Shown here: in pieces, positions 5,951-56,235 of the stretch
Layout of the letters: every line of letters begins with the position of its first letter
How positions within the stretch are numbered: the first letter of the stretch is position 1
NCBI GenBank assembly: GCA_003194495.1
Contig: PQXE01000004.1
Coordinates: 2,994-66,993 of the forward strand
Source of the DNA: Deltaproteobacteria bacterium
Lineage (GTDB): Bacteria > Desulfobacterota > Dissulfuribacteria > Dissulfuribacterales > UBA3076
Length of the DNA stretch: 64,000 bases
Direction of reading: 5' to 3'
Program-made: the position numbers and the translations under genes
The notes under the pieces: generated by a model
What the model saw: the letters and a program-made list of their open reading frames with translations, nothing else
Told to the model about the DNA's origin: nothing
Database searches by the model: none

Positions 5951-6008
5951 AATTCACGCAAAGGCGCAAAGAAAATTAAGAAAAAAATTGCGCCTTTGCG
6001 TGAAATTC
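5951..6008. repeat. Near-perfect 19-bp-stem hairpin with CGCAAAG-type arms
   Basis: aattcacgcaaaggcgcaa ... ttgcgcctttgcgtgaaatt. The same arm motif cacgcaaaggcgcaaag recurs at about 57361 and 57481. Confidence 0.7.
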
Positions 6009-6131
6009 ATAGTATAGGAATTTCCATTTTGGACACGGATGAACACAGATTTTCAAATTTATGAATAATAATATTATCTGTGTATATCTGCGAAAATCTG
6101 TGTCCTATTTAAATTATGGAGGAAATTTATA

Positions 6132-6359
6132 ATGCCTATTTTTGAGTATGTGTGCACTGCCTGCGGAGAGGATTTTGAAGAACTGGTCCTTGGGTCCAGG
6201 ACCGATGTCAAGTGTCCCAAATGCGGCTCTTTAGAGGTACAAAAGAAGATTTCAGCCTTTGCTTTTAAGACTGGTCACAAGTTTGTAGGGACCGGGGAGA
6301 AGTCAAGCAGCCTATGTAACGGTTGTACAAGTTCTGACTGCAGCTCCTGCGGGGGTTAA
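6132..6359 (+). CDS. FmdB-family zinc-ribbon putative regulatory protein
   Basis: MPIFEYVCTACGEDFE...CPKCGS signature with a Cys-rich tail CNGCTSSDCSSCGG. A GGAGG SD lies upstream. Confidence 0.8.
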   Translation: MPIFEYVCTACGEDFEELVLGSRTDVKCPKCGSLEVQKKISAFAFKTGHKFVGTGEKSSSLCNGCTSSDCSSCGG

Positions 6360-6360
6360 T

Positions 6361-7296
6361 GTGGGAACCGAAAAAAAATTGAGACTTGGGACAAGAAAGA
6401 GTTTGTTGGCCCTTTCACAGAGTAACTGGGTCAAAAAAGAAATTGAAACGCACTGGCCTGACGTCAATGTAGATCTTGTAAAGTTCACCACCAAAGGGGA
6501 TAAAATCCTGGATGTACCACTGGCCCAGGTTGGCGGCAAAGGCCTTTTTGTAAAAGAGATCGAAGACGCCCTTCTCAGGAAAGACGCGGATATCGCCGTG
6601 CACAGCTTGAAGGATGTCCCTGCCGAACTCCCGGAAGGGCTTGAAGTCACCATTTTCCCTGATCGTGAAGACCCGCGGGATGCCCTGATTTCCAGGGCCG
6701 GGCTCAGACTGGAAGAATTGCCTAAGGGTGCCCGAGTGGGCACGAGCAGTCTTCGAAGGATAGCCCAGGTTAAGAATGCAAGGCCTGATCTTGAAACGGC
6801 CTCCCTGAGGGGGAATATCGACACAAGGCTTCGTAAGCTTGATGAGGGGCAGTATGATGCCGTTATCCTGGCGGCTGCCGGGCTCAGAAGACTGGGTCTG
6901 GGTCAAAGGATTACTCAACTTCTGGAACCCGAAGTGATGCTTCCCGCCGTAGGCCAGGGGGCACTTGGCATAGAATTCAGGAGCATGAATACAGAGGTCA
7001 GGCGAATTCTTGCCTCGATCCATCATGAAGAAACATCCATCTGTGTAAGGGCTGAAAGGGCTTTTCTTTTCAGACTTGAAGGTGGATGCCAGGTGCCTAT
7101 AGGCGCCTTTGCCCAGATCAAGGGAGAAACACTTGAGCTTGAAGGCATGGTGGGTAACGAAGCCGGAACAGACATTATAAGGATAAAAAAGCAAGGATCT
7201 GCTGATCAGCCTGAAGCTCTTGGGACCAACCTTGGAGAAGAGGTCCTGGCTGCCGGGGGTGCAGAAATATTGAGGGAAGTTTATGGAGCGAATTAA
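6361..7296 (+). CDS. hemC: Hydroxymethylbilane synthase (porphobilinogen deaminase)
   Basis: LRLGTRKSLLALSQ, GGKGLFVKEIE, SLRGNIDTRLRKL and a GGCQVPIG-type C-terminus. GTG start 1 nt after the fmdB-like stop. Confidence 0.9.
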   Translation: MGTEKKLRLGTRKSLLALSQSNWVKKEIETHWPDVNVDLVKFTTKGDKILDVPLAQVGGKGLFVKEIEDALLRKDADIAVHSLKDVPAELPEGLEVTIFPDREDPRDALISRAGLRLEELPKGARVGTSSLRRIAQVKNARPDLETASLRGNIDTRLRKLDEGQYDAVILAAAGLRRLGLGQRITQLLEPEVMLPAVGQGALGIEFRSMNTEVRRILASIHHEETSICVRAERAFLFRLEGGCQVPIGAFAQIKGETLELEGMVGNEAGTDIIRIKKQGSADQPEALGTNLGEEVLAAGGAEILREVYGAN

Positions 7297-8818: not shown

Positions 8819-8870
8819 GTAACCGTTCACGGGTTCAGAGGTTCAGGGTTCAGGGTTCAGGGTTCAAAAG
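8819..8870. repeat. Tandem GGTTCAG heptamer array preceded by an AACCGTTCACGGG motif
   Basis: gtaaccgttcacgggttcagaggttcagggttcagggttcagggttcaaaag, directly after the cobA/hemD stop. Confidence 0.8.
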
Positions 8871-8916
8871 TTTTGTAATTTCTATTAATTCTGTTAAAAT
8901 ATATAATAATTCTCTC

Positions 8917-10353
8917 ATGACAATTTACTGTCCCACAGATCCTCCTGAACTTGCCACATTCTTAGGCAGAATACGCAGGAAGCAGGAAGATTATGAAAAA
9001 TACGGTTTTACCCATATCCAGGGAAGGACACTTAGGGCCTTTTTCGATCTGGCCCAGGAGTTCGAGACCATGGAGAATTTCTACAGGGTGTGTGTCTTTG
9101 TCCCCAAGGAGTTCATGGGCCTTGATTCCTGCCTTTATTTAGTCGATCCGGATACCAAAAAGCTCCAAATTGCCTGCGATTCCATCAAAGGACTGAAGGT
9201 CTGCGGCATGAATCCTCCCGATGATATCAGGATCAGCGAATCCGCCTATGAGACAGGTGATACGCTTGTATCACCTATCAGGGGTAACTGGAGGCTGTTA
9301 ACCAGGAAACCTTTAGCACAGGCAGAGGAAATTATAGGCCTGTTCGCAGTATTTCCCCTATCTAAGTTTGGAGAGAATGACAGGCTGTTTTTTGAAAAGT
9401 ACGCAAACAGAATAGGATACAATCTGCACTACAAGTTGATTTCAGTACAGAGTGAAAAGCACATCAAGTTCATCAATACGCTTGTAGCAGACATTGAGCA
9501 CAATGTCCTGGTGCCCAACATGAAATACAAGCTCTTTCTGAACAATCTCAGAAAAAAAATCCGGGAGCTTGAAGATATTGAAAAAAATATGGGGGAAAGG
9601 ATAGAAGCCGGAATCAAGAAAAAATGCATTGAGATATGCCATATAGAGCAAATACAGGATAGCCTGTCCGACTTGCGTAAAGATATCCTTGAGCAGTATG
9701 AAGAAATTGATAAACACTATCAGAATACCAGTCTTTTTCTTGAGAGCCTGCTCAGAAGGGATCACTTTGAGAAGGGACATTTGGTGCTGCGGCGCAAGAT
9801 GTGTCGTTTCAGGAAAGAGGTTTTAGACCCCCAACTTGAGCGTTACAAACAACGGCTTGAACGTAAGGGTATACGTATAGACTACCAGTTTGGCGGGATG
9901 CCTGACGAAGATATCCCATTGGCAGTGGATGTAGGGCTTATTTCTCAGGTCTATGCGAACCTGTTTTCCAATGCGGAGAAATACTGCCGGGAGGTAATTA
10001 ACGAACACGGAGAACCCGTCAAGTTTATGTCCTACGGACAGGATATAATACAAGATTTTTTCGGCCCCGGAAAGCAGGGAATCAAGTTTAATGTCTATAC
10101 AACCGGGCCGCACATCCCTTCAGAGGAGGCTTCCCGCATCTTTGACGAGGGTTTTCGCGGGACCGGTTCTGAAAACAAGCAGGGTGTCGGCCATGGATTA
10201 CATTTTGTGAAAAAGGTAGTGGAAGTCCACGGCGGCATTGTCGGCTACGAAGCAACCAATCTCGGGAACAACTTCTTCTTTGCCCTTCCCCTCCAGTACA
10301 CCATTAAAGAAATGATGGACCTCCCTCTGGTTGCTGAGCTCAATACTCCCTGA
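8917..10353 (+). CDS. Cytoplasmic sensor histidine kinase (HATPase_c)
   Basis: The C-terminus has N, G1 and G2 boxes (NLFSNAEKY, DEGFRG, GHGLHFVKKVVEVHGG) and a candidate H-box ADIEHNV. No obvious TM segment. Confidence 0.7.
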   Translation: MTIYCPTDPPELATFLGRIRRKQEDYEKYGFTHIQGRTLRAFFDLAQEFETMENFYRVCVFVPKEFMGLDSCLYLVDPDTKKLQIACDSIKGLKVCGMNPPDDIRISESAYETGDTLVSPIRGNWRLLTRKPLAQAEEIIGLFAVFPLSKFGENDRLFFEKYANRIGYNLHYKLISVQSEKHIKFINTLVADIEHNVLVPNMKYKLFLNNLRKKIRELEDIEKNMGERIEAGIKKKCIEICHIEQIQDSLSDLRKDILEQYEEIDKHYQNTSLFLESLLRRDHFEKGHLVLRRKMCRFRKEVLDPQLERYKQRLERKGIRIDYQFGGMPDEDIPLAVDVGLISQVYANLFSNAEKYCREVINEHGEPVKFMSYGQDIIQDFFGPGKQGIKFNVYTTGPHIPSEEASRIFDEGFRGTGSENKQGVGHGLHFVKKVVEVHGGIVGYEATNLGNNFFFALPLQYTIKEMMDLPLVAELNTP

Positions 10354-10513
10354 TTTTATGACAAGTAATCATTCACTTCCCCCCCTGACAGCCAACAGCC
10401 TTTTTCGGGTTTCAAAGCACAATCCGTTGAGAATACGCCTTTTGGTGCAACCTTGTCCGCGGTTGAAACCCTGCAAAAGCCTGTCGGCTGCCAGGGCAGT
10501 GTGAACGGTTACT

Positions 10514-12745: not shown

Positions 12746-12766
12746 TCAGGTAGGTAAATAAAAAAA

Positions 12767-12800
12767 GGGCGAGGTGAGATTACTCATCCTCGCCCTTTTG
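12767..12800. terminator. Bidirectional rho-independent terminator between convergent genes
   Basis: The stem gggcgagg / cctcgccc is flanked by an A-run upstream and a T-run downstream. Confidence 0.7.
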
Positions 12801-12815
12801 AACAGTTCCGGCTAT

Positions 12816-14644: not shown

Positions 14645-15874
14645 TCATGTACCTTGATCTTCAAATACCTGCTGGTTTATAATAATAGGGTCATTGACCT
14701 CCTGGATCTCTGACTCTTCATTTTCTTGAGGAATTGGTATTGGCTGCACATTAGAGATAGCGGCATAATTTTCCACCGGGCTTTTGGCCAAAGCGTTTGC
14801 AAGATTAATAATTAATGCCCCGGCGGCTTCTTCAACTGCTTTATCAATTTGGGTCCTTGCCGCTGGATCTGCCCACATACTTTTAGGCTCAACCCGTTTT
14901 TCCACCCGGTTCGCCCAAATAATGCGGCCATCACTTGCGTCTTGCAAGGCAAGACTTATTTGAACTACTGCCTGGGGAACATGGCCTCCCTTAGATGCCA
15001 AGTATGCGGCTGATGCCCCGGCCGCACCCCATACAGCAGCATTTAATCCGGCATGATCACTATATCCGCCTTCATGGCTGACAGACTTTGTAGCAAAACG
15101 TGGGTGAGAACCACCTGTTATTGTGGTCTTTTTATTAGGAGGTGTAAAAGGCGTTTCCGCATAGCTACCCAACAGGGATCCAAGACCGGCGCCAACAGCT
15201 AAATCCTGCCAAAGATCGTATCGTTCAGATTCCGCGAAACCAAATAATAACGCGGAACTCGTGTCAAAGAAAAACGGCAGGATCCCAACCTGAATCGGAT
15301 TAAGAGTATTTCCATCTCTTACTTCATATTCAACAACACGTCCTCTCAAAATGTAATCAGCCCCAAAACGGCGCCCTATTTGTTGGATGGTGCCGGGGTC
15401 AAGACCGACCCTTGTGAGCTCGTAGCGTTCTCTGGAGTTGCCAAGCTGCTCATTCATTACGGCCAGCTTCTGGATTTCTTCCTGCATGGCTTCCGACCAT
15501 CCACTACTTAATTCCGCAGTAATTAATCCGCAAGAGCTACCGGAACGAATGGAAGGTTGCCCAACGATCCGGATAACTCCAAGATCAACAAGATATTGCA
15601 CAACATCTTCTTTAAGAGGGACATAAAATCCCTTCTCGGCCAACCGGTACATCAGGGCCTCATAGATCTTGACCTGCCGGCGAAGAGAATCGTCCGGCTG
15701 AGCTCCCATGGTGTAATCCGCCAAAGGTAATACAACGATTTGTTTTGCCGGACTATTTGGATATTGAACAGGGGTATTGAGAGGTGCAACAGAATCCTTA
15801 ACTTTTTGCCCGCAACTAACGAGGCAAACCATAATTGCCAACAAAAACAGTAAAATAGACCATCTGTTAAACAT
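14645..15874 (-). CDS. Lipoprotein, CsgG/LpoB-like scaffold interrupted by glycine-zipper segments
   Basis: Signal plus lipobox LLAIMVCLVSC. It has an ADYILRGRVVEYEV-type motif and the Gly-rich stretches AVGAGLGSLLGSY and AAVWGAAGASAAY. The family call is tentative. Confidence 0.45.
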   Translation of the reverse strand: MFNRWSILLFLLAIMVCLVSCGQKVKDSVAPLNTPVQYPNSPAKQIVVLPLADYTMGAQPDDSLRRQVKIYEALMYRLAEKGFYVPLKEDVVQYLVDLGVIRIVGQPSIRSGSSCGLITAELSSGWSEAMQEEIQKLAVMNEQLGNSRERYELTRVGLDPGTIQQIGRRFGADYILRGRVVEYEVRDGNTLNPIQVGILPFFFDTSSALLFGFAESERYDLWQDLAVGAGLGSLLGSYAETPFTPPNKKTTITGGSHPRFATKSVSHEGGYSDHAGLNAAVWGAAGASAAYLASKGGHVPQAVVQISLALQDASDGRIIWANRVEKRVEPKSMWADPAARTQIDKAVEEAAGALIINLANALAKSPVENYAAISNVQPIPIPQENEESEIQEVNDPIIINQQVFEDQGT

Positions 15875-16023
15875 GACTTCCCTCCCGGAATGCCTATAGT
15901 TTTTTGTAACATTTGTATCTATCTATACTTATCGGACATATATATAAAATTACTTTAAAATTTTTTGTAACCGTTTAGTAATTTATGGGTTGAGAGGGGC
16001 AGGGAGCAGGGAGCAAAAAAAAA

Positions 16024-16173
16024 GAACATCGAACATCGAACGTCCAACATCGAATGCTGAATAGGGAAACAGGAGGCGCTGATGACAGTTTCACGGACTT
16101 GTTGAGAAATTACATTGAATGTTCAGTATTGGTTATTCGTTTTTTATTCGACATTGGATGTTGGATGTTCATC
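16024..16173. repeat. CGAACAT-arm hairpin element, full copy
   Basis: The left arm gaacatcgaacatcgaacgtccaacatcgaatg is inverted against the right arm cattcgacattggatgttggatgttc. The core (ggacttgttgagaaattacattgaatgttcag) is shared with the copy at 18439; the copy at 35272 shares only attgaatgttcggta. Confidence 0.8.
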
Positions 16174-16267
16174 TTTCAAAAAAAACCGTACAGGTTGAAA
16201 TCCTTCAGCCCTCAGCCTTCAACCTGAACAGTTACTGCGGCATAAATATAACCTTAAACGCCTACAA

Positions 16268-16768
16268 TTATTGCTTCGGTCCGCTAACCGGAGTACCCTT
16301 TCCACGCCTGTGTCGTTCACCGGCTAGCGCCCTCACTTGGCCTGCAAGCCTTTCAGAAAACAAGAGAAACCTGGCCTGATCCCTGATATTGAAAACTTCT
16401 CCCAGCCCCTCGAGTTGTCTCTTCGGGAGTTTGGCCAATTCCACGTTGGTATCGGTTAAATCCCGCATAAGATCTCTAAGCCTGGCGTCTGAAGAAGAGG
16501 AACGATCGACATCCTCCCTTAATTCCTTAAGGAGTTTTCTTCTCTTATTAATTAGCTCGACCCGATCATCATCGTATTTTTTTAGAATTCCAAAGACCTT
16601 TTGAGCCTCTTTTTCTGATAGGTCAAATTCTTGTATGAGTTCCCAGTTTCTTAGTATTACAAATCGTTCCTTAAGGTCTCTGGGTCTGTCTCGAAAGCCT
16701 GGTCCGGCAAAACACTCTGAAATCATCAGGACCAATGCGAGTGCGCAGAAAAGGATTTGCTTTTTCAT
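16268..16768 (-). CDS. Periplasmic Spy/CpxP-like (heavy-metal-sensor-like) helical protein
   Basis: A signal peptide (MKKQILFCALALVLMISECFA), then a charged helical protein. It is the last gene of the ECF sigma operon. Family call from general resemblance only. Confidence 0.45.
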   Translation of the reverse strand: MKKQILFCALALVLMISECFAGPGFRDRPRDLKERFVILRNWELIQEFDLSEKEAQKVFGILKKYDDDRVELINKRRKLLKELREDVDRSSSSDARLRDLMRDLTDTNVELAKLPKRQLEGLGEVFNIRDQARFLLFSERLAGQVRALAGERHRRGKGTPVSGPKQ

Positions 16769-16850
16769 TTTAAGTCACCTTCCTTTATTGATTTTTTTAT
16801 TGATTTTTTGGCACATGTAATCAGTTTTGAAATCCGTATTTCCGACTCTG

Positions 16851-17042
16851 TCAGCGGCATATACATCTCCAATGTCCGGGTATCCATATTCCTCTATAAT
16901 TGCAATGCCGAGGCACCCACACTTTTGCACAGCCGCACGCCACCGGCCCCGGTGGCGGACACTGAACCCTGGCTGTACAGCTAACAGACAAAAGAAATAT
17001 GACCAATAGCAAAGTAAGAAATACCCTTCTCATAACTATCAC
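16851..17042 (-). CDS. Small Cys-rich membrane-anchored or secreted protein with a repeated W(V/I)P(R/G)HW motif
   Basis: 63 aa with a hydrophobic N-terminus, then CTARVQCPPPGPVACGCAKVWVPRHCNYRGIWIPGHWRCICR (7 Cys). It sits 4 nt after the anti-sigma gene. Confidence 0.5.
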   Translation of the reverse strand: MIVMRRVFLTLLLVIFLLSVSCTARVQCPPPGPVACGCAKVWVPRHCNYRGIWIPGHWRCICR

Positions 17043-17046
17043 CTCC

Positions 17047-18088: not shown

Positions 18089-18121
18089 AACATGTTCAAA
18101 ATAAACCAGAGTTACCAGTTA

Positions 18122-18147
18122 AGACGATTCAAGCTGTCAATTCGTTT
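18122..18147 (-). promoter_or_regulatory. Possible autoregulated ECF-type promoter (AAAC-N17-CGTCT)
   Basis: The minus strand reads aaacgaattgacagcttgaatcgtctta about 35 nt upstream of the sigma ATG. Motif resemblance only. Confidence 0.25.
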
Positions 18148-18166
18148 AAAAAATAATGGATTTTAT

Positions 18167-18383: not shown

Positions 18384-18395
18384 GATTTTATTCAA

Positions 18396-18436
18396 ACAAA
18401 TTGTAGGTTGGGTTAAGCTGTCAGGCTGCAACTAAT
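18396..18436. repeat. Solo left end of the TTGTAGGTTGGGTTAAGC element
   Basis: caaattgtaggttgggttaagctgtcaggctgcaactaat matches 58402-58440. Confidence 0.7.
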
Positions 18437-18438
18437 AT

Positions 18439-18537: not shown

Positions 18538-18583
18538 CTTTAGATCTTAAACCTTTGAACCCTGAACTCTGAACCTTTAAACC

Positions 18584-42758: not shown

Positions 42759-42768
42759 CAGGAAATAA

Positions 42769-44506: not shown

Positions 44507-45934
44507 ATGCTCCAAAGAAACTTTCCCAGATTAGTTGTCGCGGGCCTTAAGGGCGGAGCAGGAAAAACCGTTGCCTCTTTAGGACTGGTTCGGGCCTGGC
44601 AGAAACAAGGCCTTCGAATAATTCCTTTTAAAAAAGGCCCTGATTATATCGATGCCGGCTGGCTCTCACAGGCTGCCAAAAGGCCCTGCTACAACCTGGA
44701 CCCTTTCCTTATGTCCAGGGAAATTATCCGAAAGTCCTTTGCCTTCAGAGCAAAAAATGCTGATATCAGTGTAATAGAAGGTAATCGTGGTCTTTTTGAC
44801 GGCGTAGATGAGTCCGGTTCAAGTAGCACGGCAGAACTTGCCAAGTGGATAGATGCCCCTGTTGTCCTGGTTTTGGACTGCACCAAAATGACAAGAACAG
44901 CCGCAGCCCTTGTCCTGGGCTGTCAGGGGCTTGATCCGGGACTTCGTGTTGAGGGAGTGATACTCAACCATGTAGCCGGATTGCGCCATGAAACAATTGT
45001 CAGGCAATCTGTGGAAAAATACACAGGCATTTCCGTACTCGGTGCCCTGCCAAGGATGAAAGGTGATCCTATCCCCATGCGCCATCTTGGTGTAACTCCG
45101 TGGGAAGAACACCCGGAGGCCGCCGAGGCCCTGGACCGGCTGGGCCGGATGGTGACAGAATCAGTGGATATGCATGCATTAGCAAAGATCGCTGATCAGA
45201 GCGGAGAATGGAAGTTTGGCAGTATGGATGCCGTGGAACTATTTCCTGGTGCAGAAGAAATCCCTTTGTCACAAGCGCCGCTTGTGGGTGTGCTCCGGGA
45301 CGGGGCCTTTCAATTCTATTACCCTGAAAACCTTGAAGCCCTGGAGAAAGCCGGGGCAAAACTCATATTCCTGGATTCCCTTCAAGGTGGCGGATTGCCG
45401 GAACTCGATGCACTATATATAGGAGGTGGGTTCCCTGAAACACAGGCTGCCCGCCTCTCAGCTAATGAAGCCATGAGGAGGGATCTCTATCAGGCTATAC
45501 ATCGCGGACTTCCTGTCTATGCAGAGTGCGGAGGCCTGATGTATCTAGGCAGGCAACTTGTCTGGCAAGGGCGGACCTATCCTATGGCAGGGGCCATTGG
45601 TTGGGATTTTGTTGTCGGTGAAAAGCCGGTCGGCCATGGCTACAGCGCCCTGGAAGTTGTCTCCCAAAACCCCTTTTATGATATAGGGACAATATTGCGG
45701 GGCCATGAATTCCATTACTCCAGACCGGTCCTGGCGGACAAAGAAAAATCAGGAAAACTAAGCTGCCGTGTAGTAAGGGGACATGGCTTTGACGGACAAC
45801 TTGAAGGAATAACGTTTAAAAATATCTTTGGGACCTATACACACATCCACGCCCTTGAACGCCCTGAATGGGCCACCCGCCTGGTTAAGATCGCTATTGA
45901 ATATCGGGCATCCTTAACGACAGGTCAAAAGTAG
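44507..45934 (+). CDS. CobB/CbiA-family a,c-diamide synthase paralogue; DsrN (sirohaem amidase) candidate
   Basis: Atypical P-loop AGLKGGAGKT, FKKGPDYID, and a C-terminal GATase-like ECGGLMYL. The start is moved to MLQRNF, 4 nt after the rSAM stop. It lies beside the dsr cluster. Confidence 0.6.
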   Translation: MLQRNFPRLVVAGLKGGAGKTVASLGLVRAWQKQGLRIIPFKKGPDYIDAGWLSQAAKRPCYNLDPFLMSREIIRKSFAFRAKNADISVIEGNRGLFDGVDESGSSSTAELAKWIDAPVVLVLDCTKMTRTAAALVLGCQGLDPGLRVEGVILNHVAGLRHETIVRQSVEKYTGISVLGALPRMKGDPIPMRHLGVTPWEEHPEAAEALDRLGRMVTESVDMHALAKIADQSGEWKFGSMDAVELFPGAEEIPLSQAPLVGVLRDGAFQFYYPENLEALEKAGAKLIFLDSLQGGGLPELDALYIGGGFPETQAARLSANEAMRRDLYQAIHRGLPVYAECGGLMYLGRQLVWQGRTYPMAGAIGWDFVVGEKPVGHGYSALEVVSQNPFYDIGTILRGHEFHYSRPVLADKEKSGKLSCRVVRGHGFDGQLEGITFKNIFGTYTHIHALERPEWATRLVKIAIEYRASLTTGQK

Positions 45935-46114
45935 TTTACACTTTGTTCGTCTTGTGTTTTGCCGGTGAAATTTGAAACTGGAAATTGGAAAAAATACAAA
46001 GATATAGATGCGTTACCTAATTTCAAGTTTCAAATTTCCAGTTTCGACATCGACATTCAATTCGATAATAAACGCTTTTTCGAAAAAAGTGTAAACCAGT
46101 GGATAAAGGATGCC
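45907..46114. repeat. Nested-palindrome element, copy 4; its left end supplies the last 9 codons of the CbiA/DsrN-like gene
   Basis: ggcatccttaacgacaggtcaaaagtagtttacac ... aaaaaagtgtaaaccagtggataaaggatgcc. The core hairpin is built of GAAATTT/GAAACTG heptamers. Confidence 0.8.
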
Positions 46115-46227
46115 AAATATTTCACAAACGGGGTTGACAAAAAGAACGCCGATCGTCTATATGAACGACCAAGTAATTAAATGCCAAGAGATGTGGGCTT
46201 ACTGATTATCATAAAAAGGAGGAAGTT

Positions 46228-46419
46228 ATGTTTGAGGTTACCATTGATTTTGATAAGTGCCAAGGCGACGAGGAGTGTGTGGGCAACTGTCCGTCTGAAG
46301 TATTTGACTGGGACGAAGAGGCTGAAAGGCCAATAATCGCCAGGATGGATGACTGTTTGGGCTGTGAGACCTGTGTAGAGGTCTGTGAAGCGGGCGCAAT
46401 CACCGTTGAGGAAGTCTAG
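46228..46419 (+). CDS. Small ferredoxin
   Basis: 63 aa with CQGDEECVGNCP and CLGCETCVEVC motifs. AGGAGG SD. Confidence 0.85.
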   Translation: MFEVTIDFDKCQGDEECVGNCPSEVFDWDEEAERPIIARMDDCLGCETCVEVCEAGAITVEEV

Positions 46420-46450
46420 CGCAATCTAAACGTCAAATTTTATCAAAAAA

Positions 46451-46478
46451 AGGATAGCCATTGGCTATCCTTTTTTTG
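46451..46478. terminator. Bidirectional rho-independent terminator (ferredoxin / ribF)
   Basis: aggatagcca-t-tggctatcct with an A-run before and a T7 run after. Confidence 0.75.
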
Positions 46479-47698: not shown

Positions 47699-47745
47699 CC
47701 TAATCAGTGTCTGAACGGAAAAGCAATTCAGGCACAATTTTGAAT

Positions 47746-48078
47746 TTAGGATTTTGAATTTAGGATTGCTGATTTTTGAACGGAATTATTTCCTGTCTTT
47801 CCGTTTATTTTTTGACGCAGCACTCCGGACGGCCGGAAAGTCACGACTCTTCGAGGTTCAAGAATCAGGTCCTCTCCTGTATGTGGGTTTCTGCCACGTC
47901 TGGACCTCTTATCCTTGACAGAAAATTTACCAAAACCGCTAACAAGAACGTTCTCTCCTGCCTCAAGACGATCTTTAATGATCTTGAGCAAGCTCTCTAC
48001 GGCTTGAGCAGACTCTATTTTGCTCAGTTTTTTACTTCTATATATACGACTTACAAGATCTGCCTTAGTTAAGGTCAT
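47746..48078 (-). CDS. HU/IHF-family DNA-binding protein with a repeat-encoded C-terminal tail
   Basis: MTLTKADLVSRIY...GFGKFSVKDKRSRRGRNPHTGEDLILEPRRVVTFRPS. The last roughly 12 codons lie in AATTCAAAATCCTAAATTC repeats. Confidence 0.8.
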   Translation of the reverse strand: MTLTKADLVSRIYRSKKLSKIESAQAVESLLKIIKDRLEAGENVLVSGFGKFSVKDKRSRRGRNPHTGEDLILEPRRVVTFRPSGVLRQKINGKTGNNSVQKSAILNSKS

Positions 48079-49862: not shown

Positions 49863-50213
49863 ATGAAGATTGAGTCATATCGCTTTGGTGAAATAGTAAT
49901 TGATGGAATACGTTATACAAAGGACCTGAAAATTATTAGAAGAAAGGCCTTTGACAACTGGTGGAGGTCCCAGGGACATACCCTTCAACTCTCTGATATC
50001 CTGGATGTTGTAGATGCAAAACCCGGTACCCTGATAGTCGGAACAGGTGCCTACGGCAAAATGGTTCTAGGTTCCGGGCTTTCGGAGGAACTCGCGGCTA
50101 AGGGCATCCACATTGAAGCCCTTCCCACTGAACCCGCCATACAGAGATTCAATGAACTGGTATCGCAACTTGGACACGAGACTGTTGCCTTTGCAGTTCA
50201 CCTCACATGCTAG
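49863..50213 (+). CDS. Mth938-like (DUF498) domain protein
   Basis: MKIESYRFGEIVIDGIRYTKDLKII...LIVGTGAYGKM. AAGGAG lies 9 nt before the ATG at 49863. Confidence 0.65.
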   Translation: MKIESYRFGEIVIDGIRYTKDLKIIRRKAFDNWWRSQGHTLQLSDILDVVDAKPGTLIVGTGAYGKMVLGSGLSEELAAKGIHIEALPTEPAIQRFNELVSQLGHETVAFAVHLTC

Positions 50214-51697
50214 GGCCTCTTGCACACCGATCTCCTGATTCTCCCCTTCCGGGTATTGTAATTGCCGGCTCACACAGCGGCTGCGGGAAAACAACAGTTA
50301 CCCTTGCCATAATGACGGCACTGAAAAAAAGAGGCCTTAAGGTGGCTCCTTTTAAGGTTGGCCCTGACTTTATTGATCCAGGACACCACGCCTCAGTGTG
50401 CGGATGCCCTTCTCACAACCTTGACGGGTGGATTTTAAATAAATCTTCAGTGCAGGAGTTGTACTCGCAGTATTGTGCCGGGGCGGATGTTTCAGTTATT
50501 GAGGGGGTAATGGGCCTATTTGATGGTGCCGGAGGAACTTCTGAATCAGGTTCTACTGCAGAAATCGCAAAGTGGCTGGATCTGCCTGTTCTATTGATAG
50601 TGGATGTGCTTGGTATGGCAAGGAGTGTGGTCGCGCTGGTCAAGGGCTATCTTGAATTCGACAGCGGCTTACGCTTTGCCGGAGTAGTCCTTAATAAAAC
50701 GGGAAGTAAAAGGCATGCTGCGCTTTTGAAAGTAGCGCTGTCTCCTCTGGGACTGTCATGGACCGGCGCCCTGTTTCGTAATCAGGACTTGCAACTTCCA
50801 TCAAGACATCTGGGACTCATAACTGCGGAAGAAGGCGGTCTTGAAGCAAAACAAGCAGACCTTTTTAGGAGCTGGTTTGAAAAAGGCTGCGATTTAAATT
50901 TATTACTAAAGACAATCCGGCAAAACAGGAAAGACATACGTCCGGCTGATCAAACCGAAACAATAAAACGCCCCGGCATTTCCCTTTCGCGTCCGGTGCG
51001 TATTGCAGTGGCAAAGGATGAGGCCTTTTGTTTTTATTATCAGGCAAATCTTGACATTCTTGAAAGATTCGGTGCGGAAATCGTGTTTTTCTCGCCCCTT
51101 AGAGATCATTCCCTGCCTCCTGTAATACAGGGGCTTTATCTTGGAGGTGGATACCCTGAACTGCACGCCCAAGCCCTCTCAACAAACAGGGAACTTCGAG
51201 AGGAAATACTGACCAAAGCCCGGGGAAATCTCCCTATCTATGCAGAATGCGGGGGCTTTCTGTACCTGTGCCGGGGCTTGGCTCAAAAAGAAAATCCAAG
51301 GCCGGCACATCCCTGGGTCGGCCTGTTCCCTTTTATGGTAAATATGCAGAAAAGGCGCTGTGCTCTTGGCTACAGAAAAATCATTTTAAAAAAAGATACT
51401 ATACTCGGCCCGGCAGGCACAAAAATTAGAGGACACGAATTCCATTATTCCAATTTACTTGAGCCGATTTCTCAGGATAAATCAATAATCCGTATCTACG
51501 AGGTCAGAAATGCCGGTGACAACCTTCTTGCCCCTGAAGGTTACACATGGAACAACACGCTTGCCGGCTATATACATCTACATTTTGGAAGTTGCCCCGA
51601 TGCTGCCAAGAACTTCGTAGCTGAAGCGCAACGGCATTTTGTTCGTAACCGTTCAGGGTTCACAGGTTCATGGTTCACCGAAGATCAGAATCGTTGA
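50207..51697 (+). CDS. cbiA: Cobyrinate a,c-diamide synthase family protein (second paralogue)
   Basis: Canonical AGSHSGCGKTTVT P-loop, FKVGPDFID, and the GATase motif ECGGFLYL. The start overlaps the upstream stop (ATGCTAG). The C-terminal FVRNRSGFTGSWFTEDQNR is encoded by GGTTCA heptamers. Confidence 0.7.
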   Translation: MLGPLAHRSPDSPLPGIVIAGSHSGCGKTTVTLAIMTALKKRGLKVAPFKVGPDFIDPGHHASVCGCPSHNLDGWILNKSSVQELYSQYCAGADVSVIEGVMGLFDGAGGTSESGSTAEIAKWLDLPVLLIVDVLGMARSVVALVKGYLEFDSGLRFAGVVLNKTGSKRHAALLKVALSPLGLSWTGALFRNQDLQLPSRHLGLITAEEGGLEAKQADLFRSWFEKGCDLNLLLKTIRQNRKDIRPADQTETIKRPGISLSRPVRIAVAKDEAFCFYYQANLDILERFGAEIVFFSPLRDHSLPPVIQGLYLGGGYPELHAQALSTNRELREEILTKARGNLPIYAECGGFLYLCRGLAQKENPRPAHPWVGLFPFMVNMQKRRCALGYRKIILKKDTILGPAGTKIRGHEFHYSNLLEPISQDKSIIRIYEVRNAGDNLLAPEGYTWNNTLAGYIHLHFGSCPDAAKNFVAEAQRHFVRNRSGFTGSWFTEDQNR

Positions 51698-51844
51698 TTT
51701 GTGAGTTCTTAACCCACAATCTTCTTGCAAAAAACCCTTTATTTGGCTAAGAATTCCATGTCCTCAACAAATAAATTGATTATACTGCAAAAAGTCTGAA
51801 ACATGATTCCGCTCAAAAAGCCCGAGATGTATCCCTTTATAGGC

Positions 51845-52047
51845 AATGTTGAATTGTGAATGCTGAATTGTGGAAGAAAATTTAAAAAATATATACCGAG
51901 GTACTTGCAAAAATGCAAAAATTGCACCTCGCTTCAAATCGAGCATAATAATTTCAGTAGGTTATATATGTCTTGATAATAGAAAAGTGCAAAAATTGCA
52001 TTTTTGCAAGAGGCTCTACCTTAATTCAAAATTCAGCATTCAACATT
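51845..52047. repeat. AATTCAGCATTCA-arm element, long copy carrying a nested insertion
   Basis: The outer arms aatgttgaattgtgaatgctgaattgtggaag / cttaattcaaaattcagcattcaacatt match the reverse complement of 25117-25197. Confidence 0.85.
51898..52016. mobile_element. 119-bp MITE-like insertion with about 30-bp terminal inverted repeats and a 4-bp TACC target-site duplication
   Basis: TIRs are gaggtacttgcaaaaatgcaaaaattgcac and gtgcaaaaattgcatttttgcaagaggctc. TACC lies at 51894-51897 and 52017-52020. The paralogous copy at 25117-25197 reads atatataccttaattc uninterrupted. Confidence 0.7.
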
Positions 52048-52116
52048 TATTGTATTGTGCGCCGCAGATTGGATTTTTTCAGCGGAATCATAAATTAAAA
52101 TAGGAGATTTCTGACT

Positions 52117-54690
52117 ATGCCAACAGGTCTGCGCTGGAAATTTATCTTGATGGCAGCACTTATTGCCTTGTCTGTGGTTTTTGTACTGCCCTCTTTCTAT
52201 AAAGGTACGCCTGACTGGTTCAAAAAGTATATTTACAGCGAGGGCCTGAAACTTGGTCTGGACCTCCAGGGAGGAATGCATCTCATCCTCAAGGTGGACG
52301 TGGACCAAGCAGTTAGAAATTCTGCAGATCTTGCGGCAACGGACCTTAAGGAGTCCCTTGGGCGCAGACAGATAACATTGGTGCGCCGCCAGAGTCCGAA
52401 CCCTGACGAAATACTGTTCTTTCTTCCTAATAAGGACGCGGTGGGAAGGGTAAAGGCCGTTCTGGAAGATGAATTCCCAAGCCTCGAACTCGTAAAGGTA
52501 AAAGAAGAGGGAAAATTCCCCAGCCTGGTATTAAGACTCTCCCCGGAAGAAGAAAAATTCATAAGAGAAAACGCGGTTGATCAGTCCCTGGAGATCATTC
52601 GTAACCGGATAGACCAGTTTGGTGTTACAGAACCTGTAATCGTCCGTCAAGGCGAGGAAGAAATAGTAGTCCAGCTTCCGGGGATCCGGGACCCTGAACG
52701 GGCCCTCAAGCTCATAGGGCAGACCGCGCAACTGGAGTTCAAACTGGTGGATGACGAGGCCGGAGTAGATATTGGAAGGCTTATCCGCCAAGCAGCAGAT
52801 AGCGGCCGCCTTCCAGCCGGCTATAACATTAAGGCCCTTAACTCGGTCCTGAAGGGCCAGATACCCAGGGACGATTCCATTTACTTCCTTAAAGATGTCG
52901 ATGATCGCACAGGCAAAATCAAAAAGACGCCGATTCTTCTCAAGGACAAAACGCTGATGACAGGGGATACTGTAAAGACTGCCCACGTCCGGATCGGCGG
53001 GAATTACAACGAGCCCTATGTTGCCCTTGAGTTTACAGATCGGGGGGCAAGACTCTTTGAGAAAATCACCGGTGATAATGTGGGCAAGCGTCTTGCCATT
53101 GTCCTGGACGGAGTGGCCCGCTCTGCACCGGTAATAAGGGAACGTATAGGAGGAGGGCATGCCCAGATCACCGGCTCATTTACTACTGAAGAGGCATCCG
53201 ACCTTGCCATTGTGCTAAGAGCCGGGGCCCTGCCCGCGCCGATCAGCATTATTCAAAACGTCACGGTAGGTCCGTCTCTTGGCCGTGATTCCATACAGCA
53301 CGGCCTGTATTCGGGCCTGCTCGGAGCGGCCTTTGTAGTTGTCTTCATGGTCATATATTACACGTTTTCAGGTTTCATAGCGAACATAGCCATGGTCCTG
53401 AACCTGCTCTTTCTTATGGCTGTTCTGGCGCTTTTCCAGGCCACACTGACCCTTCCCGGAATAGCAGGCATCATACTCATCATTGGTATGGGTGTTGACT
53501 CCAACGTACTGATCTTTGAGCGCATGCGGGAGGAAAGGGCCCTTGGAAAACCCCTTAAGGCATTTATTGACGGGGGTTATGACAAGGCCTTCTGGACCAT
53601 TGTAGACGCCCATGTTACTACTCTTATAACCGCCATAGCCCTGTTCCTCTTTGGAACCGGCCCAATCAAGGGCTTTGCCGTCACCCTGTCCGCCGGTATT
53701 GTCATCAACCTCTTTACTGCCATCTTTGGGACCAGGATGGTATATGACGGGCTGCTGGCCAAGCATGCCCTGAGCAACCTGAGGTTCCTCCAGTTAATCA
53801 AGAAAACCAACCTGGACTTCATAGGACGCAGGAATTTCGCCTTCGCACTGTCAGTAGTCCTGGTAACTATAGGTCTCGCAGGCTTCATACAGGTCGTAAG
53901 AGGGACAGCCAACCTCGGCGTAGACTTTTCCGGTGGAACCATGGTCCAGTACCGCGCGGACAAGCCCTTTACCCTGGACAATGTAAGAAAGGCCCTGACA
54001 GAAACCGGTATCGAGGGTTACTCCCTCCAGGAAGTGCCGGGGGAACATGTCTTAATCGTACGCGTCAAAAAATCAGTGGCTACTGTAGGAGACATAGAGA
54101 CCAGTATAACCAACAGCTTAAAACAAGACCTTCCTGAGACCCGCTTTGTAATAGAAAGCAAGGCCGAGATCGGTTCAACCGTGAGCAAGGAGTTGAGACG
54201 TAAGGCACTGATAGCAATATGCATATCATTTGCGGGCATAATCTGTTACCTGGCCTTCAGGTTCAATTTAAGCTTTGGAATAGCAGCTACCGCCGCCACC
54301 TTCCATGACGTACTGGTAGTACTTGGCATTTTATTTATCCTGGACAAGGAAATAACACTCCTGACAATAACCGCCCTTCTGACACTTGGCGGCTACTCCC
54401 TCACTGATACAGTAGTAGTCTTTGATAGAATCAGAGAAAATATCAAACGTTACAAGAAATTGCCTTTTGCCGGGATCATAAATCAAAGCATCAACGAGAT
54501 GCTGAGCAGGACAATTATTACGTCCACGACCACGATGATGGTAGTCTTGTGCATCTTTTTCTTTGGCGGTGTGGTAATACATGACTTTGCCTTTACTCTG
54601 CTATTGGGAGTGCTGGTTGGGACCTATTCCTCAGTATTCGTAGCCAGCCCTGTGGTGTATTTGTGGCACAAGGGGAAAACGCCTAGATAG
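52117..54690 (+). CDS. secDF: Fused protein translocase subunits SecD and SecF
   Basis: 857 aa. SecD periplasmic P1 region ([11 protein letters not shown]), then 6 + 6 TM helices with SecF motifs in the C-terminal third. Confidence 0.9.
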
Positions 54691-54698
54691 GTTTTCCC

Positions 54699-55961
54699 AT
54701 GGATCAACTAATCATTGAAGGCAGGCACCCGCTCAAGGGGACTATCAGGATTAGCGGGGCCAAAAACGCGGCCCTGCCCATTCTTGCGGCAACGCTCCTC
54801 ACCGGCGGCACCTTCAGGCTGCAGAATATCCCCAGGCTGGTTGACATAAAAACCTTCACAGACCTCCTGACTGACCTGGGCGTTACGGTAGATTACAGCG
54901 CAGATAATGACTCTGATGTCTTAAACATAGACTCCTCAGGACTCTCTGACCACGAGGCCCCTTACGACCTGGTGCGCAAGATGCGGGCTTCAATTCTGGT
55001 GCTTGGACCTCTTATATCCCGCATTGGAAAGGCCCGTGTTTCCCTTCCCGGAGGTTGTGCCATCGGCGCCCGTCCCATAAATCTTCACTTAAAGGGCCTT
55101 GAGCTCATGGGGGCCAAGCTCCGGCTCAAAGAAGGCTACATAGAGGCAAAGGCAGGGAGACTGAACGGTGCGCATATCTATTTTGACACGCCGTCTGTGA
55201 CAGGCACGGAAAACCTGATGATGGCGGCGGTCCTTGCCAAGGGGATAACCGTACTGGGAAATGCTGCAATGGAACCGGAGGTGATTGCCCTGGGACAAAT
55301 GCTCAACCAAATGGGGGCAAAAATCAAGGGCCTTGGTTCAAATACCATCAAGATAGAAGGCGTCAAGAAACTAAGACCTGTTGAATGGAAAATAATCCCG
55401 GATCGCATAGAGGCCGGCACGTACATGATGGCTGTGGGGGCAGTTGGCGGAGAGCTGATAATTAAAAATGTTTTAGCAGATCACTTGGAGGCGGTCATAT
55501 CCAAACTCAGGAGCACAGGGCTTCAGGTTGAAGTAGATAATGCCGGAATTTCCGTCAGGAAAAAAGGCGCTCTGCACAGTGTGGATGTTACGACTCTGCC
55601 ATATCCCGGTTTCCCGACTGATCTGCAGGCCCAGATCATGGTGCTGATGGCCCTGGCCGGTGGCCTCAGTGTGATCACTGAAACCATATTTGAAAACCGT
55701 TTCATGCACGTTGCCGAGTTAAGACGGCTTGGCGCTGACATAAAGGTTGAGGGCAGGAGCGCCATCATCAAAGGTGTAAAGGGATTAAACAGTGCCCCTG
55801 TAATGGCCACTGATCTCAGGGCCAGCGCCTCTCTGGTACTGGCAGGACTTGCAGCAAAAGGGATTACAACAATATCCAGAGTTTACCACCTTGATCGCGG
55901 GTATGAATACCTGGAACAGAAGCTTGCAGCAGTGGGGGCCAAAATCAAAAGAAAAAAGTAA
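54699..55961 (+). CDS. murA: UDP-N-acetylglucosamine 1-carboxyvinyltransferase
   Basis: [41 protein letters not shown] and FPTDLQAQ motifs. The stop codon lies inside the first bases of the repeat at 55958. Confidence 0.95.
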
Positions 55962-56184
55962 GCGTTTACATGGCACCGCATCTGCTTTGTTGCCGGGCAC
56001 TTGAAGTACAGGAAGTACGTCTGCGTACCCGTCGCCTTGCATCTGCAGCACCCTGTAAACGCTTACAGTTCGATGGATTACGTTTACATGGCACCGCATC
56101 TGCTTTGTTGCCGGGCACTTGAAGTACAGGAAGTACGTCTGCGTACCCGTCGCCTTGCATCTGCAGCACCCTGTAAACGCTTAC
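55958..56184 (-). repeat. Tandem dimer of the 109-nt long-hairpin unit (reverse orientation)
   Basis: Read on the minus strand it has the same unit-linker-unit organisation as 23382-23609, with the same taatccatcgaact linker. Confidence 0.85.
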
Positions 56185-56235
56185 AATCCGGTAGGTTAGA
56201 AACTCTATTTCGTCTGTGTTTGTCTGTGTGGGTCT

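Follow-up and report, generated by a model that had tools for sequence, protein, structure and literature searches.

Tandem heptanucleotide repeats have been described in several bacterial groups. STRR heptanucleotides are found in heterocystous cyanobacteria (Mazel et al., 1990; Vioque, 1997; cited in PMC2858038), and Xanthomonas carries 70-75 convergent GGGAATC pairs able to form stem-loops; from species to species the arrays differ in length but stay paired or single (PMC4692102). TAACTGA repeats of 2-6 copies are abundant in the intergenic regions of marine Beggiatoaceae, some cyanobacteria and Bacteroidetes; nearly all are direct, with one inverted exception, and are positioned immediately ahead of start codons (PMC4679880). 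In Drosophila and plants, the tandem-repeat arms or TIRs of Foldback/Galileo elements provide extra transposase binding sites (PMC3688188). The heptamer arrays of the window, by which we mean the whole 64-kb stretch of DNA analyzed here, are a real and striking observation, and they combine two known kinds of bacterial repeat rather than representing a new type of structure.

The host of the window is a sulfate reducer with dsrMKJOP genes; MAGs of Thermodesulfobacteriota or Seep-SRB2 are its relatives. When TRF tandem-repeat calls on the 64-kb window were compared with those on 60 dinucleotide shuffles, we found 22 arrays of period 7 (shuffle mean 1.0, maximum 3), ten of period 14 (mean 0.27, maximum 2) and two of period 21 (mean 0.03, maximum 1). 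Periods 8 and 9 yielded six arrays each, against about 1.5 in shuffles, and no period was as outstanding as period 7. This was also the dominant period among the relatives (46 of 94 TRF rows), and 708 kb of metagenome loci contained 203 period-7 arrays versus about 60 for period 8 or 9. The 7-periodic bases comprised 520 of 7685 intergenic nt (6.8%) and 238 of 56315 nt inside ORF calls (0.4%), a density about 16-fold greater in intergenic DNA, and those within ORF calls mostly represent over-extended ORF ends. The original prediction had described 7-nt and 14-nt periodic arrays and proposed a comparison of intergenic with coding DNA, and on both points it was borne out. All the examples that it listed were present where it had placed them or nearby, except that CGCAAAG turned out to be an 8-nt unit and 21474-21496 was scored as period 8. 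Its impression that almost every gap between genes holds such arrays was overstated, as about 18 of about 30 gaps of at least 40 nt bear them. The arrays are located at either gene end, and several begin exactly at stop codons.

The repeats comprise 34 distinct canonical heptamers in the window and its relatives and 83 in the 708 kb of metagenome loci. They had been taken to be specific to their loci, but GAACATC, GGTTCAG, TTAGCNN, AATTCAG and CGCAAAG each occur at 2-5 loci of the window, with conserved flanks outside the heptamers, and are also present in unrelated contigs. Altogether, 34% of the intergenic bases of the window match repeats of unrelated contigs, and the repeat units recur together with their surrounding sequence in Seep-SRB2-type genomes and in at least 120 metagenome contigs.

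The analogy with STRR sequences, already drawn in the original prediction, is apt: in both cases there are multiple 7-nt unit sequences, located in intergenic DNA on both strands, with copy numbers that vary among relatives. The arrays described here differ in that they belong to another phylum and that about half of them are inverted pairs in mobile palindromes with defined ends and TSDs. CCCCAGT, TTGGTCA and CAACAGT, reportedly the STRR units, were absent as STRR1-3 units from the 34 canonical heptamers of the window and relatives. Intergenic heptamer arrays are likewise shared with Xanthomonas (GGGAATC) and Nostoc (GGGGAYT), but there each genome has one G-rich, quadruplex-prone unit (PMC4692102), whereas the present arrays use dozens of AT-rich units, have no G4 potential and are carried on MITEs. 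Paired heptamer arrays had been thought undescribed; the Xanthomonas pairs are a precedent. The TAACTGA repeats are also intergenic heptamer arrays of sediment bacteria, and differ from the units found here, which are diverse, often inverted and located at either gene end.

A reverse-complement partner at most 300 nt away was found for 12-13 of 25 merged arrays, compared with about one in reversed/complemented controls. Inverted pairing is real, although not as usual as had been supposed, since about half of the arrays are unpaired. Folds of the paired arrays had z-scores of -3.7 to -9.2 relative to shuffles, and low values are expected of any inverted repeat. Pairing in several registers, which tandem arms had been expected to allow, was found for one of four hairpins tested.

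We consider it likely that the intergenic DNA is a patchwork of several families of small, nested, foldback, non-autonomous mobile elements, and that the heptamer arrays which many of them carry owe their 7-nt bias to slippage. Family A is proven to be a MITE, as defined in PMC3184786, by its TIRs, 8-bp TSDs, empty sites in relatives and small size and dispersal. The TIRs GGCATCCTTCAT...ATGAAGGATGCC are present in all four full copies of the window, and 45 distinct full copies were found overall; the TSD is a perfect 8 bp in 28 of 44 copies and has one mismatch in four more. The right-end pattern had at least 120 matches in the metagenome scan. Family A copies are 105-354 bp long, contain no transposase ORF and are flanked by housekeeping genes. 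A1 (18163-18385, minus strand; z -7.6) is bounded by GGCATCCTTCAT/ATGAAGGATGCC and the TSD ATAAAATC, and contains a second stem, GTAGTTTACAC/GTGTAAACTAC, and inner arms of TTAGCNN heptamers; its site is empty in the relative L010. It is 97% identical to 61858-61996 within A4 (61786-62000, plus strand; z -6.5), which also has TTAGCNN arms and a perfect 8-bp TSD, CAATAAAT. A2 (21261-21415, plus strand) has the TSD TCTTTTCT, that is, (A)TCTTTTC(T), and lies within a family B element that is uninterrupted, and thus an empty site, in the orthologous L004 and in L009. A3 (45906-46124, plus strand; z -3.8) has a degenerate TSD and inner arms (GAAATTN)4/(NAATTTC)4, which define the commonest subfamily among the metagenomes. 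An A-like element at 57335-57534 (plus strand; z -4.3) has inner GTAGTTTACAC/TGTAAAC stems and arms of CGCAAAG units, with ATGAAGGATGC at its right end only.

Family A resembles bacterial MITEs such as Correia/NEMIS, ERIC, RUP, Nezha and Chunjie (PMC3184786) in its size and TIRs, in having a TSD of fixed length but no transposase, in the number and dispersal of its copies, in its AT-rich intergenic targets and in the long stem-loops predicted for it. It differs from them in that its interior is a variable slot for hairpin modules, many of which are tandem-heptamer foldbacks. The heptamer hairpins found as cargo were of the types GAAATTN, TTAGCNN, GGTTTCA/CCTGACA and TCAGTTR (with AACTGAY, in L051 and L107), and other copies carried a 9-mer hairpin or REP-like palindromes with GTAG, or had no hairpin. 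An autonomous element or IS with family A ends was not found in 132 loci (about 0.79 Mb) and the window, about 0.86 Mb in total, and there were no transposase genes among the 30 ORFs scanned in the window; from the former result we infer that a transposase gene located elsewhere mobilizes family A in trans. The one long-spaced pair of family A ends, in L015, was rejected as an autonomous element, since it consists of two MITEs, one on each side of a kaiC-like gene.

In family B, a foldback, the heptamer arrays are outermost on both sides. The copy at 16016-16177 (z -3.7) has outer arms (GAACATC)4/(GATGTTS)3 and a conserved core TTGAATGTTCAGTATTGG..TTCGTTTTTTATTCGA, with ten copies in other loci, and the copy at 35262-35408 is complete (dG -55, z -6.4). 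A half element at 18439-18545 (plus strand) consists of the right arm, (GATGTTC) x6.4, its partner arm having been separated by rearrangement. The right arm of the element interrupted by A2, at 21419-21505 (plus strand), contains (GATGTTC) x4.4 followed by a CTGAACC array, which together overlap the 3′ end of a radical-SAM ORF call (21428-22444). No direct repeats were found flanking the ATGAAC.../...GTTCAT termini of about ten complete copies, and family B may spread differently, for example by a REPIN or IS200/IS605-like route. Long inverted arms of short tandem repeats liken family B to Foldback/Galileo, but those are eukaryotic elements with kilobase arms, whereas the arms here are 30-90 nt.

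Nesting was seen repeatedly. In addition to A2 in family B, we found a family C hairpin in family G, a family G element in a family A copy (L011) and family C in a GGTGGAA hairpin (L005, L011). In the window, the palindromic MITE of family G at 51780-52095 (ends ..GATTCCGCTCAAAA / TTTTCAGCGGAATC; z -5.4) encloses a family C heptamer hairpin (51845-52047), which itself encloses a palindrome at 51904-52010. Another family C hairpin, at 25110-25200 (AATGTTG/AATTTTG versus CAATTCAG/CATTCAC; z -7.8), lies in a remnant of family G between the convergent ycaO and SBP genes. The content of one orthologous gap varies from genome to genome: the window has a C hairpin there, L004 and L006 an AGCTGAA hairpin, L005 and L009 a G MITE, and L011 a B element. 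In L012 the gap is empty, so that a hairpin is dispensable there. The idea of hairpins built locus by locus thus gave way to one of copies of dispersed, nested mobile elements, marked by TSDs and empty sites.

Array lengths change in steps of 7 nt between orthologues and paralogues, in agreement with the copy-number slippage that had been proposed as a check: GAACATC after glnD has 2-6 copies across orthologues, the GGTGGAA arms have 3-9 each, and arms within A subfamilies measure 23, 30 or 37 nt and 21 or 28 nt. Among orthologues the copy numbers of the two arms are unbalanced and drift independently. We infer from these patterns that slippage is the mutational mechanism. Replication slippage would favor heptanucleotide units, as in heterocystous cyanobacteria, Beggiatoaceae and Xanthomonas, so that arrays could grow, shrink and arise de novo in 7-nt steps, and transposition of the carriers would then disperse them. 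The hairpins would come from the carriers, which are built as inverted repeats (family A as a classical MITE, family B as a foldback), so that an array in one arm has a mirror copy in the other; this design suffices to account for the hairpin architecture. The hairpins would be mainly selfish or neutral, with incidental effects on transcripts at most. Slippage gives no reason for the preference for 7 nt or for the enrichment of the units in GAA/TTC.

That enrichment bears on an unlikely alternative, namely that the arrays are functional parts of the elements, iterated binding sites in a 7-nt register for a transposase on subterminal repeats or for a cold-shock-type ssDNA-binding protein. A GAA/TTC (TTCA/TTCG) core is present in 20 of 34 distinct units and in 38 of 83 units of the metagenome loci, compared with about 27% expected, and the outermost position of the arrays in both family B arms fits such a role. 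GGTTCAG arrays, moreover, are preceded by a conserved end motif, GTAACCGTTCA (25 matches versus 1.6 expected), and there are precedents in the tandem-repeat TIRs of Galileo (PMC3688188) and in CspB, of which each protein binds one heptamer (cited in PMC4679880). However, the arrays of family A are internal cargo, swappable with non-heptamer palindromes or absent, and are therefore not required for its mobility. Many units, including TTAGCCA, CGCAAAG, GCAGGGA and CAATCAT, are without the core, an array may arise in a single arm, as did (TTTGGTG)5, de novo, in a B copy in L111, and no candidate protein was identified.

It is similarly improbable that the modules without TSDs (family B and stand-alone heptamer hairpins) are REPIN- or PATE-like and either move as single-stranded hairpins through a tyrosine transposase of the HUH class (RAYT or IS200/IS605 type) or enter the loops of hairpins. 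Such movement would account for hairpins nested in hairpins, and insertions are repeatedly close to loop centers, but some sites, such as the GGTGGAA-hairpin locus, show replacement instead of clean insertion. The lack of a TSD in family B is in line with this possibility, as are the REP-like doublets of GTAG and hairpin found as family A cargo and as family F at 18396-18436 and 58400-58555, given the RAYT/REP biology described in PMC2817692 and PMC3184786. REP, BIME and REPIN sequences share with the elements reported here short intergenic palindromes, often in doublets, repeat mosaics and the lack of a TSD (PMC2817692, PMC3184786). The heptamer hairpins, in contrast, are AT-rich and have neither the GTAG head nor the GC-rich palindromic stem that defines REP, GTAG being confined to family F and some A cargo. 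A RAYT or TnpA gene was not seen in the window or the examined loci.

We regard it as quite unlikely that selection maintains the hairpins as RNA or DNA structures (terminators, 3′-end stabilizers, RNase III sites or attenuators), free in sequence but kept in pairing and periodicity. The fold energies far below those of shuffles (z -4 to -9) and the arrays that begin at stop codons favor it, but any inverted repeat would give low z-scores, and elements also lie in divergent promoter regions (23291-23752, 27750-28311, 31931-32175 and 42328-42768), such as the TTAGCGN/NCGCTAA hairpin at 31955-32122 (z -5.3), which shares its heptamer family with A1 and A4 but is without the A frame. Intrinsic terminators have a short GC-rich stem and a 3-8 nt loop ahead of a U-tract. 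The heptamer hairpins differ from these in their AT-rich stems, their loops of 18-140 nt and the lack of a T-run or U-tract; ordinary terminators with GC stems and U-tracts exist at 12746-12815, 31139-31285 and 46444-46478. A terminator consensus scan of the window showed no enrichment (20 versus 19.6 expected), and the two matches within arrays were intra-arm artefacts. With Rfam covariance models, two tRNAs alone reached the gathering score, and no repeat element was matched at E up to 0.5.

The original prediction held that selection or a generating mechanism acts on structure and periodicity rather than on sequence; a strong 7-nt bias across many unit sequences, often in hairpins, agrees with this, but the compensatory arm changes that it proposed to look for did not appear. 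In 14 copies, native left/right arm pairs folded at -21.7 and chimeric pairs at -21.3 kcal/mol (permutation p = 0.27), revealing no co-variation or base-level co-evolution of the arms. Complementarity even reaches 100% over 33 nt between arms of different copies, compared with 85% within one copy. Arm lengths are correlated within the GAAATTN subfamily (r = 0.74), in support of selection on structure, and this could reflect shared ancestry or some pressure for balanced arms. TSDs and empty sites point to insertion rather than local evolution, and an orthologous gap may be empty or hold another element. One hairpin, GGTGGAA/GGCTGAA with TTCCACC/TTCAGCC at 26774-26915 (z -5.5) between the PHP and SBP genes, is kept at its locus in the window and four orthologues, with a single arm in two of them (L005 and L011), which is compatible with a local function.

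An origin of the arrays in assembly or sequencing errors has a negligible probability: short-read contigs of the relatives often end inside arrays, but such breaks are what dispersed repeats produce, and the same arrays occur in 11 independently assembled relatives, with species-level differences, in one 100% identical Logan contig and in at least 120 metagenome contigs from many samples.

The remaining arrays of the window lie close to genes or other repeats. A short hairpin at 5950-6007 (dG -29.4, z -9.2), 10 nt past the stop of ORF 4987-5940, has two copies of ACGCAAAG, an 8-nt unit, in each of its arms, which are 95% complementary and are found again at 57351-57504. The unpaired array at 8819-8872 (plus strand; z -0.8) begins directly past the cobA/hemD stop codon with the boundary motif GTAACCGTTCAC, followed by (GGTTCAG) x5.7, and has seven copies in unrelated loci. 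Also unpaired are (GCAGGGA) x3 at 15995-16015 (plus strand) and the GGTTCAG-type array at 18549-18590 (minus strand), directly past the glnD stop codon, which is missing at the orthologous site of L003, L004, L005 and L008 and longer in L009. The unpaired (CAATCAT) x5.7 array at 21120-21159 (minus strand; GATTGAT on the other strand), at the very 5′ terminus of the ORF called for glnD, is probably in the glnD 5′ UTR, as the GlnD profile begins at residue 22 and the array is kept in some relatives only. At 27750-27815 (plus strand; z +1.4), unpaired TTGAACC/CTGAACC and then (ACGAACT/ATGAACT) x6.6 abut the start of ORF 26898-27749, and at 51645-51682 (plus strand) GTAACCGTTCAGG and an unpaired GGTTCAN (GGTTCAG) array overlap the final 50 nt of the cobQ-like ORF 50207-51697. 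A degenerate GGCTGAA/GGTTGAA array at 16195-16245 (minus strand), with GTAACTGTTCAGG at its minus-strand start, lies downstream of the stop of ORF 16268-16768, and (CAATTNT) x3.9 at 22530-22556 (plus strand) adjoins the stop of ORF 22559-23290. Family E consists of an (AATTCAA) x4.6 array with a short terminator-like hairpin at 32705-32775 (plus strand) and its inverted copy at 47700-47776 (minus strand), where (ATTTTGAATTTAGG) x2.8 is located directly past a tRNA gene.

The heptamer arrays in the intergenic DNA of the window are real and conspicuous. TRF reported 22 period-7, 10 period-14 and 2 period-21 arrays, against means of 1.0, 0.27 and 0.03, respectively, in 60 dinucleotide-preserving shuffles of the window, and a lag-identity scan, which is independent of TRF, found long runs at lags 7, 14 and 12 only. 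Seven-periodic bases make up 6.8% of intergenic DNA versus 0.4% of ORF calls. The periodicity claimed in the original prediction is borne out, and all the examples it listed exist, with two minor amendments: the CGCAAAG unit is an 8-mer, and the period scored for one of the GGTTCAG arrays is 8. It had placed arrays in almost every gap between genes; they are indeed present, but only in about 18 of some 30 gaps of at least 40 nt. A GAA/TTC core is found in 20 of the 34 distinct heptamer units of the window and its relatives and in 38 of the 83 units of 708 kb of metagenome loci, versus 27% expected.

The hairpins had further been described as locus-specific, which did not hold up. In a repeat search the arrays recurred within the window together with conserved non-heptamer sequence. 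Family A is present in four full copies (A1 to A4, at 18163-18385, 21261-21415, 45906-46124 and 61786-62000) and one partial copy (57335-57534). Family B, with GAACATC/GATGTTC arms, is found at 16016-16177 and 35262-35408 and as half-elements at 18439-18545 and 21419-21472, heptamer hairpin family C at 25110-25200 and 51845-52047, the AATTCAA array family E at 32705-32775 and 47700-47776, and the CGCAAAG hairpins at 5950-6007 and 57351-57504. Heptamer families carried inside family A also occur outside its frame (TTAGCGN at 31955-32122, CGCAAAG at 5950-6007). The GGTTCAG arrays termed 'unpaired' are opened by a boundary motif, GTAACCGTTCA, with 25 occurrences in 0.86 Mb versus 1.6 expected. 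Altogether, 34% of the intergenic bases of the window match repeats in positionally unrelated metagenome contigs.

Family A is a proven MITE. It begins with GGCATCCTTCAT on the left and ends with ATGAAGGATGCC on the right, with a second stem formed by GTAGTTTACAC and GTGTAAACTAC. Its right end had at least 120 matches in metagenome contigs. Overall we recovered 45 distinct complete copies, 44 of them with both flanks present; the 8-bp TSD is perfect in 28 of these 44 and has one mismatch in 4 more. Within the window the TSDs of A1, A2 and A4 are perfect. The relative L010 has an empty A1 site, with a single ATAAAATC, and A2 is missing both from the orthologous position in L004 and from L009, which have the empty site. 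Family A is an abundant MITE, widespread in metagenome contigs of 33-56% GC. There are no transposase genes within the window, and no autonomous family A copy was found in ~0.86 Mb of DNA among long-spaced end pairs and orphan right ends. One candidate parent, L015, was rejected as two MITEs flanking a kaiC-like gene, and the remaining orphan ends were rejected as truncated or as having mutated left ends.

Between its conserved ends, family A has a variable slot in which one hairpin can stand in for another. The commonest cargo, seen also in A3, is a GAAATTN/NAATTTC heptamer hairpin, and A1 and A4 carry a TTAGCNN hairpin; other copies hold arrays of GGTTTCA/CCTGACA or of the TAACTGA-related TCAGTTR, a hairpin of a 9-mer (CTAAAGTGC), REP-like GTAG palindrome doublets or other palindromes, or no hairpin at all (L031, L083). 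Among the 45 copies the arm period is 7 in 18 and 9 in one, and no other period occurs. The cargo arms at L051 (~4100-4200) and L107 (~1700-1800) consist of TCAGTTG/TCAGTTA and AACTGAC/AACTGAT, which are related to the TAACTGA repeat known from Beggiatoaceae, cyanobacteria and Bacteroidetes. In the window itself, a REP-like palindromic family with a GTAG head (ATTGTAGGTTGGGTTAAGCC...GCTTAACCCAATCTACAAT; z = -6.4) lies at 18396-18436 and 58400-58555, and similar GTAG-hairpin doublets fill many metagenome A copies (e.g., L021 and L029).

The elements are inserted into one another. A2 is nested in a family B element of which L009 and L004 have an unbroken version, family C hairpins lie inside the palindromic MITE family G in the window, and in L011 an A copy has this G element within its heptamer arm. 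In L005 and L011, C hairpins take the place of the inner part of the GGTGGAA hairpin. The convergent ycaO/SBP gap illustrates the turnover at one site: the window has a C hairpin there and L011 a B element, L005 and L009 carry a G MITE, L004 and L006 have an (AGCTGAA)n/(TTCAGCT)n hairpin from the ycaO stop codon onward, and in L012 the gap is empty (13 nt). The elements also mark points of rearrangement. In L004, L008 and L009 a single B element separates glnD from the lipoprotein-like gene that comes next (14645-15874 in the window), whereas in the window and L003 a three-gene segment (ECF sigma factor, 17546-18088, and ORFs at 17047-17556 and 16268-16768) lies between glnD and this usual neighbour, with a B-element part on either side (window 16178-18438); in the window, this stretch also contains an A MITE. 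This arrangement suggests insertion or recombination at the repeat. No TSD was found for the family B copies, of which about 10 complete ones were compared. At L005 (8620-9170), an ORF identified by eye as an IS3-type transposase (OrfA-like N-terminus MSVIRKRHTQQIKMKVALEAIKGQKTTAEI...) splits the B element downstream of glnD.

Copy number, which the original prediction had proposed to compare, changes in steps of 7 nt between orthologues and between copies, probably by slippage. The GAACATC array after glnD has 2, 2, 4, 5, 5 and at least 6 units in six orthologues, the GGTGGAA arms have between ~3 and 9 units and are unequal to each other, and in 14 copies of the GAAATTN subfamily the arms are 23, 30 or 37 nt and 21 or 28 nt long. 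Downstream of glnD, the window and L009 share a GGTTCAG array that four other orthologues lack. In one arm of a B element in L111 (~9250-9330) a (TTTGGTG)5 array has arisen at a site that in other copies shows no more than the proto-repeat GTTTGGTCTTTGTT, a clean case of a heptamer array born de novo.

The pairing of the arrays was described as usual in the original prediction; it is real but not general, as 12-13 of 25 arrays have a reverse-complement partner at most 300 nt away (~1 in controls) and long arrays without a partner include those at 8819-8872, 27750-27815 and 21120-21159. Folding z-scores of the paired regions lie between -3.7 and -9.2. Pairing in several registers applied to one of four hairpins tested, with an alternative register within 5 kcal/mol, and not to the other three. 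Compensatory changes between arms left no signal: in 14 GAAATTN-subfamily copies, gathered by a fuzzy pattern, chimeric arm pairs fold as well as native pairs (p = 0.27), and a 33-nt stretch is 100% complementary across the arms of different B copies while the arms within one copy are only 85% complementary. There is therefore no evidence for pairing kept up by selection or conversion. The arm lengths of the GAAATTN subfamily are correlated (r = 0.74), for which shared ancestry may be a simple explanation.

These features are best explained as slippage arrays of the STRR type that reside on mobile elements, MITEs or foldback elements nested in one another; the heptamer arrays would change by slippage and would travel on the elements. 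Each component has precedents. MITEs that have TIRs, TSDs and long stem-loops are well established (PMC3184786), tandem-repeat arms are the hallmark of eukaryotic Foldback/Galileo elements (PMC3688188), TAACTGA heptanucleotide repeats occur in Beggiatoaceae (PMC4679880), and GGGAATC/GGGGAYT repeats occur in Xanthomonas and Nostoc, where 70-75 of the Xanthomonas arrays are convergent pairs with stem-loop capacity (PMC4692102). The 7-nt preference has tentatively been put down to the footprint of the polymerase (Mrazek et al., 2007, cited in PMC4692102). In the literature we searched, whose coverage is incomplete, such elements were not found described for Seep-SRB2 or other sulfate reducers. 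The elements add a new member to kinds already known, from a lineage that has been little studied, and do not amount to a new structural principle. Heptanucleotide arrays of heterocystous cyanobacteria are known as STRR. The present lineage is a fourth bacterial one with an unexplained bias to 7-nt tandem units, and it is good test material for slippage versus protein binding because its units are diverse and close relatives show clear step-of-7 differences.

It is improbable, in our judgement, that the hairpins are instead a distinct class of very small mobile modules, dependent, for being made and inserted into the loops of other hairpins, on a lineage-specific enzyme or on a protein that binds single-stranded nucleic acid and recognises a GAA/TTC core in a 7-nt register. 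Such a protein-binding or specialised-mobility reading stays alive, at low probability, because slippage on mobile elements leaves the 7-nt preference, the GAA/TTC core, the TSD-less spread of family B and the correlated arm lengths unexplained. If true, the hairpins would be a bacterial counterpart of Foldback elements and would give a mechanistic handle on the old question of the heptanucleotide preference in cyanobacteria, Beggiatoaceae, Xanthomonas and seep sulfate reducers. A role as canonical terminators or promoters was rejected, since terminator and promoter consensus scans of the window showed no enrichment. The heptamer hairpins have long loops and no U-tract, unlike the ordinary terminators at 12746-12815, 31139-31285 and 46444-46478, and are found in divergent promoter regions too. 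An Rfam search of the repeats gave no match at the gathering score, nor at E up to 0.5.

The window has a G+C content of 47% and encodes dsrMKJOP (36646-41773) and housekeeping genes (glnD, secDF, cobA/hemD, cobQ-like, ycaO and murA-like EPSP synthase-fold genes). A GlnD search of species-representative genomes gave 11 loci, all from uncultured Thermodesulfobacteriota or 'Deltaproteobacteria' MAGs, one labelled Seep-SRB2, with 84-95% protein and 85-95% nucleotide identity. As contigs of the relatives end in arrays, the repeats account for MAG breaks at gene boundaries in ANME-partner-type sulfate reducers; a 2.6-kb Logan contig with the exact GlnD protein has both ends within repeats. A large inverted duplication around glnD was rejected, since the ORFs at 18584-21157 and 52117-54690, each of exactly 857 aa, are unrelated (GlnD and SecDF).

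The repeats also flag ORF calls that extend into repeat DNA. In the glnD ORF call, a (CAATCAT) x5.7 array (21120-21159) takes up codons 1 to 12. Since the GlnD family profile does not start until residue 22, and the sequences of several relatives diverge upstream of 21122, glnD probably starts further downstream, which would place the array in its 5' UTR. Two ORF calls, for a radical-SAM protein (21428-21505) and a CobQ-like amidotransferase (51645-51697), reach into repeats at their 3' ends, so that either their C-terminal residues are repeat-encoded or their stop codons were supplied by insertion. Two small unannotated-looking ORFs lie beside repeats in 'intergenic' gaps (6133-6360 and 46233-46421), one for a CxxC zinc-ribbon-like peptide (MPIFEYVCTACGEDFEELV...) and the other for a ferredoxin-like Cys-rich peptide, the latter followed by a perfect terminator (46444-46478).

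Two further repeats were observed. Family D, a ~119-nt repeat that has no heptamers and no match in Rfam, lies at 23357-23610, 42606-42759 and 55958-56197, with two copies in tandem at two of the loci. Its fold is very stable (z as low as -13.7), and it gives rise to spurious ORFs and is usually preceded by GTAACCGTTCACGGGATTACAA.GCCCGTTTTACCGC; its ends (GTAAGCGTTTACAGGGTGC.../...GCACCCTGTAAACGCTTAC) resemble IS66-type terminal repeats. A ~150-nt palindromic element (CTGACAGCCAACAGCC...GGCTGCCAGGGCAG) at 10354-10513, whose end GTGAACGGTTAC is directly upstream of the ATG at 10514, recurs at another position in L003 (4639-4786) with 96% identity.
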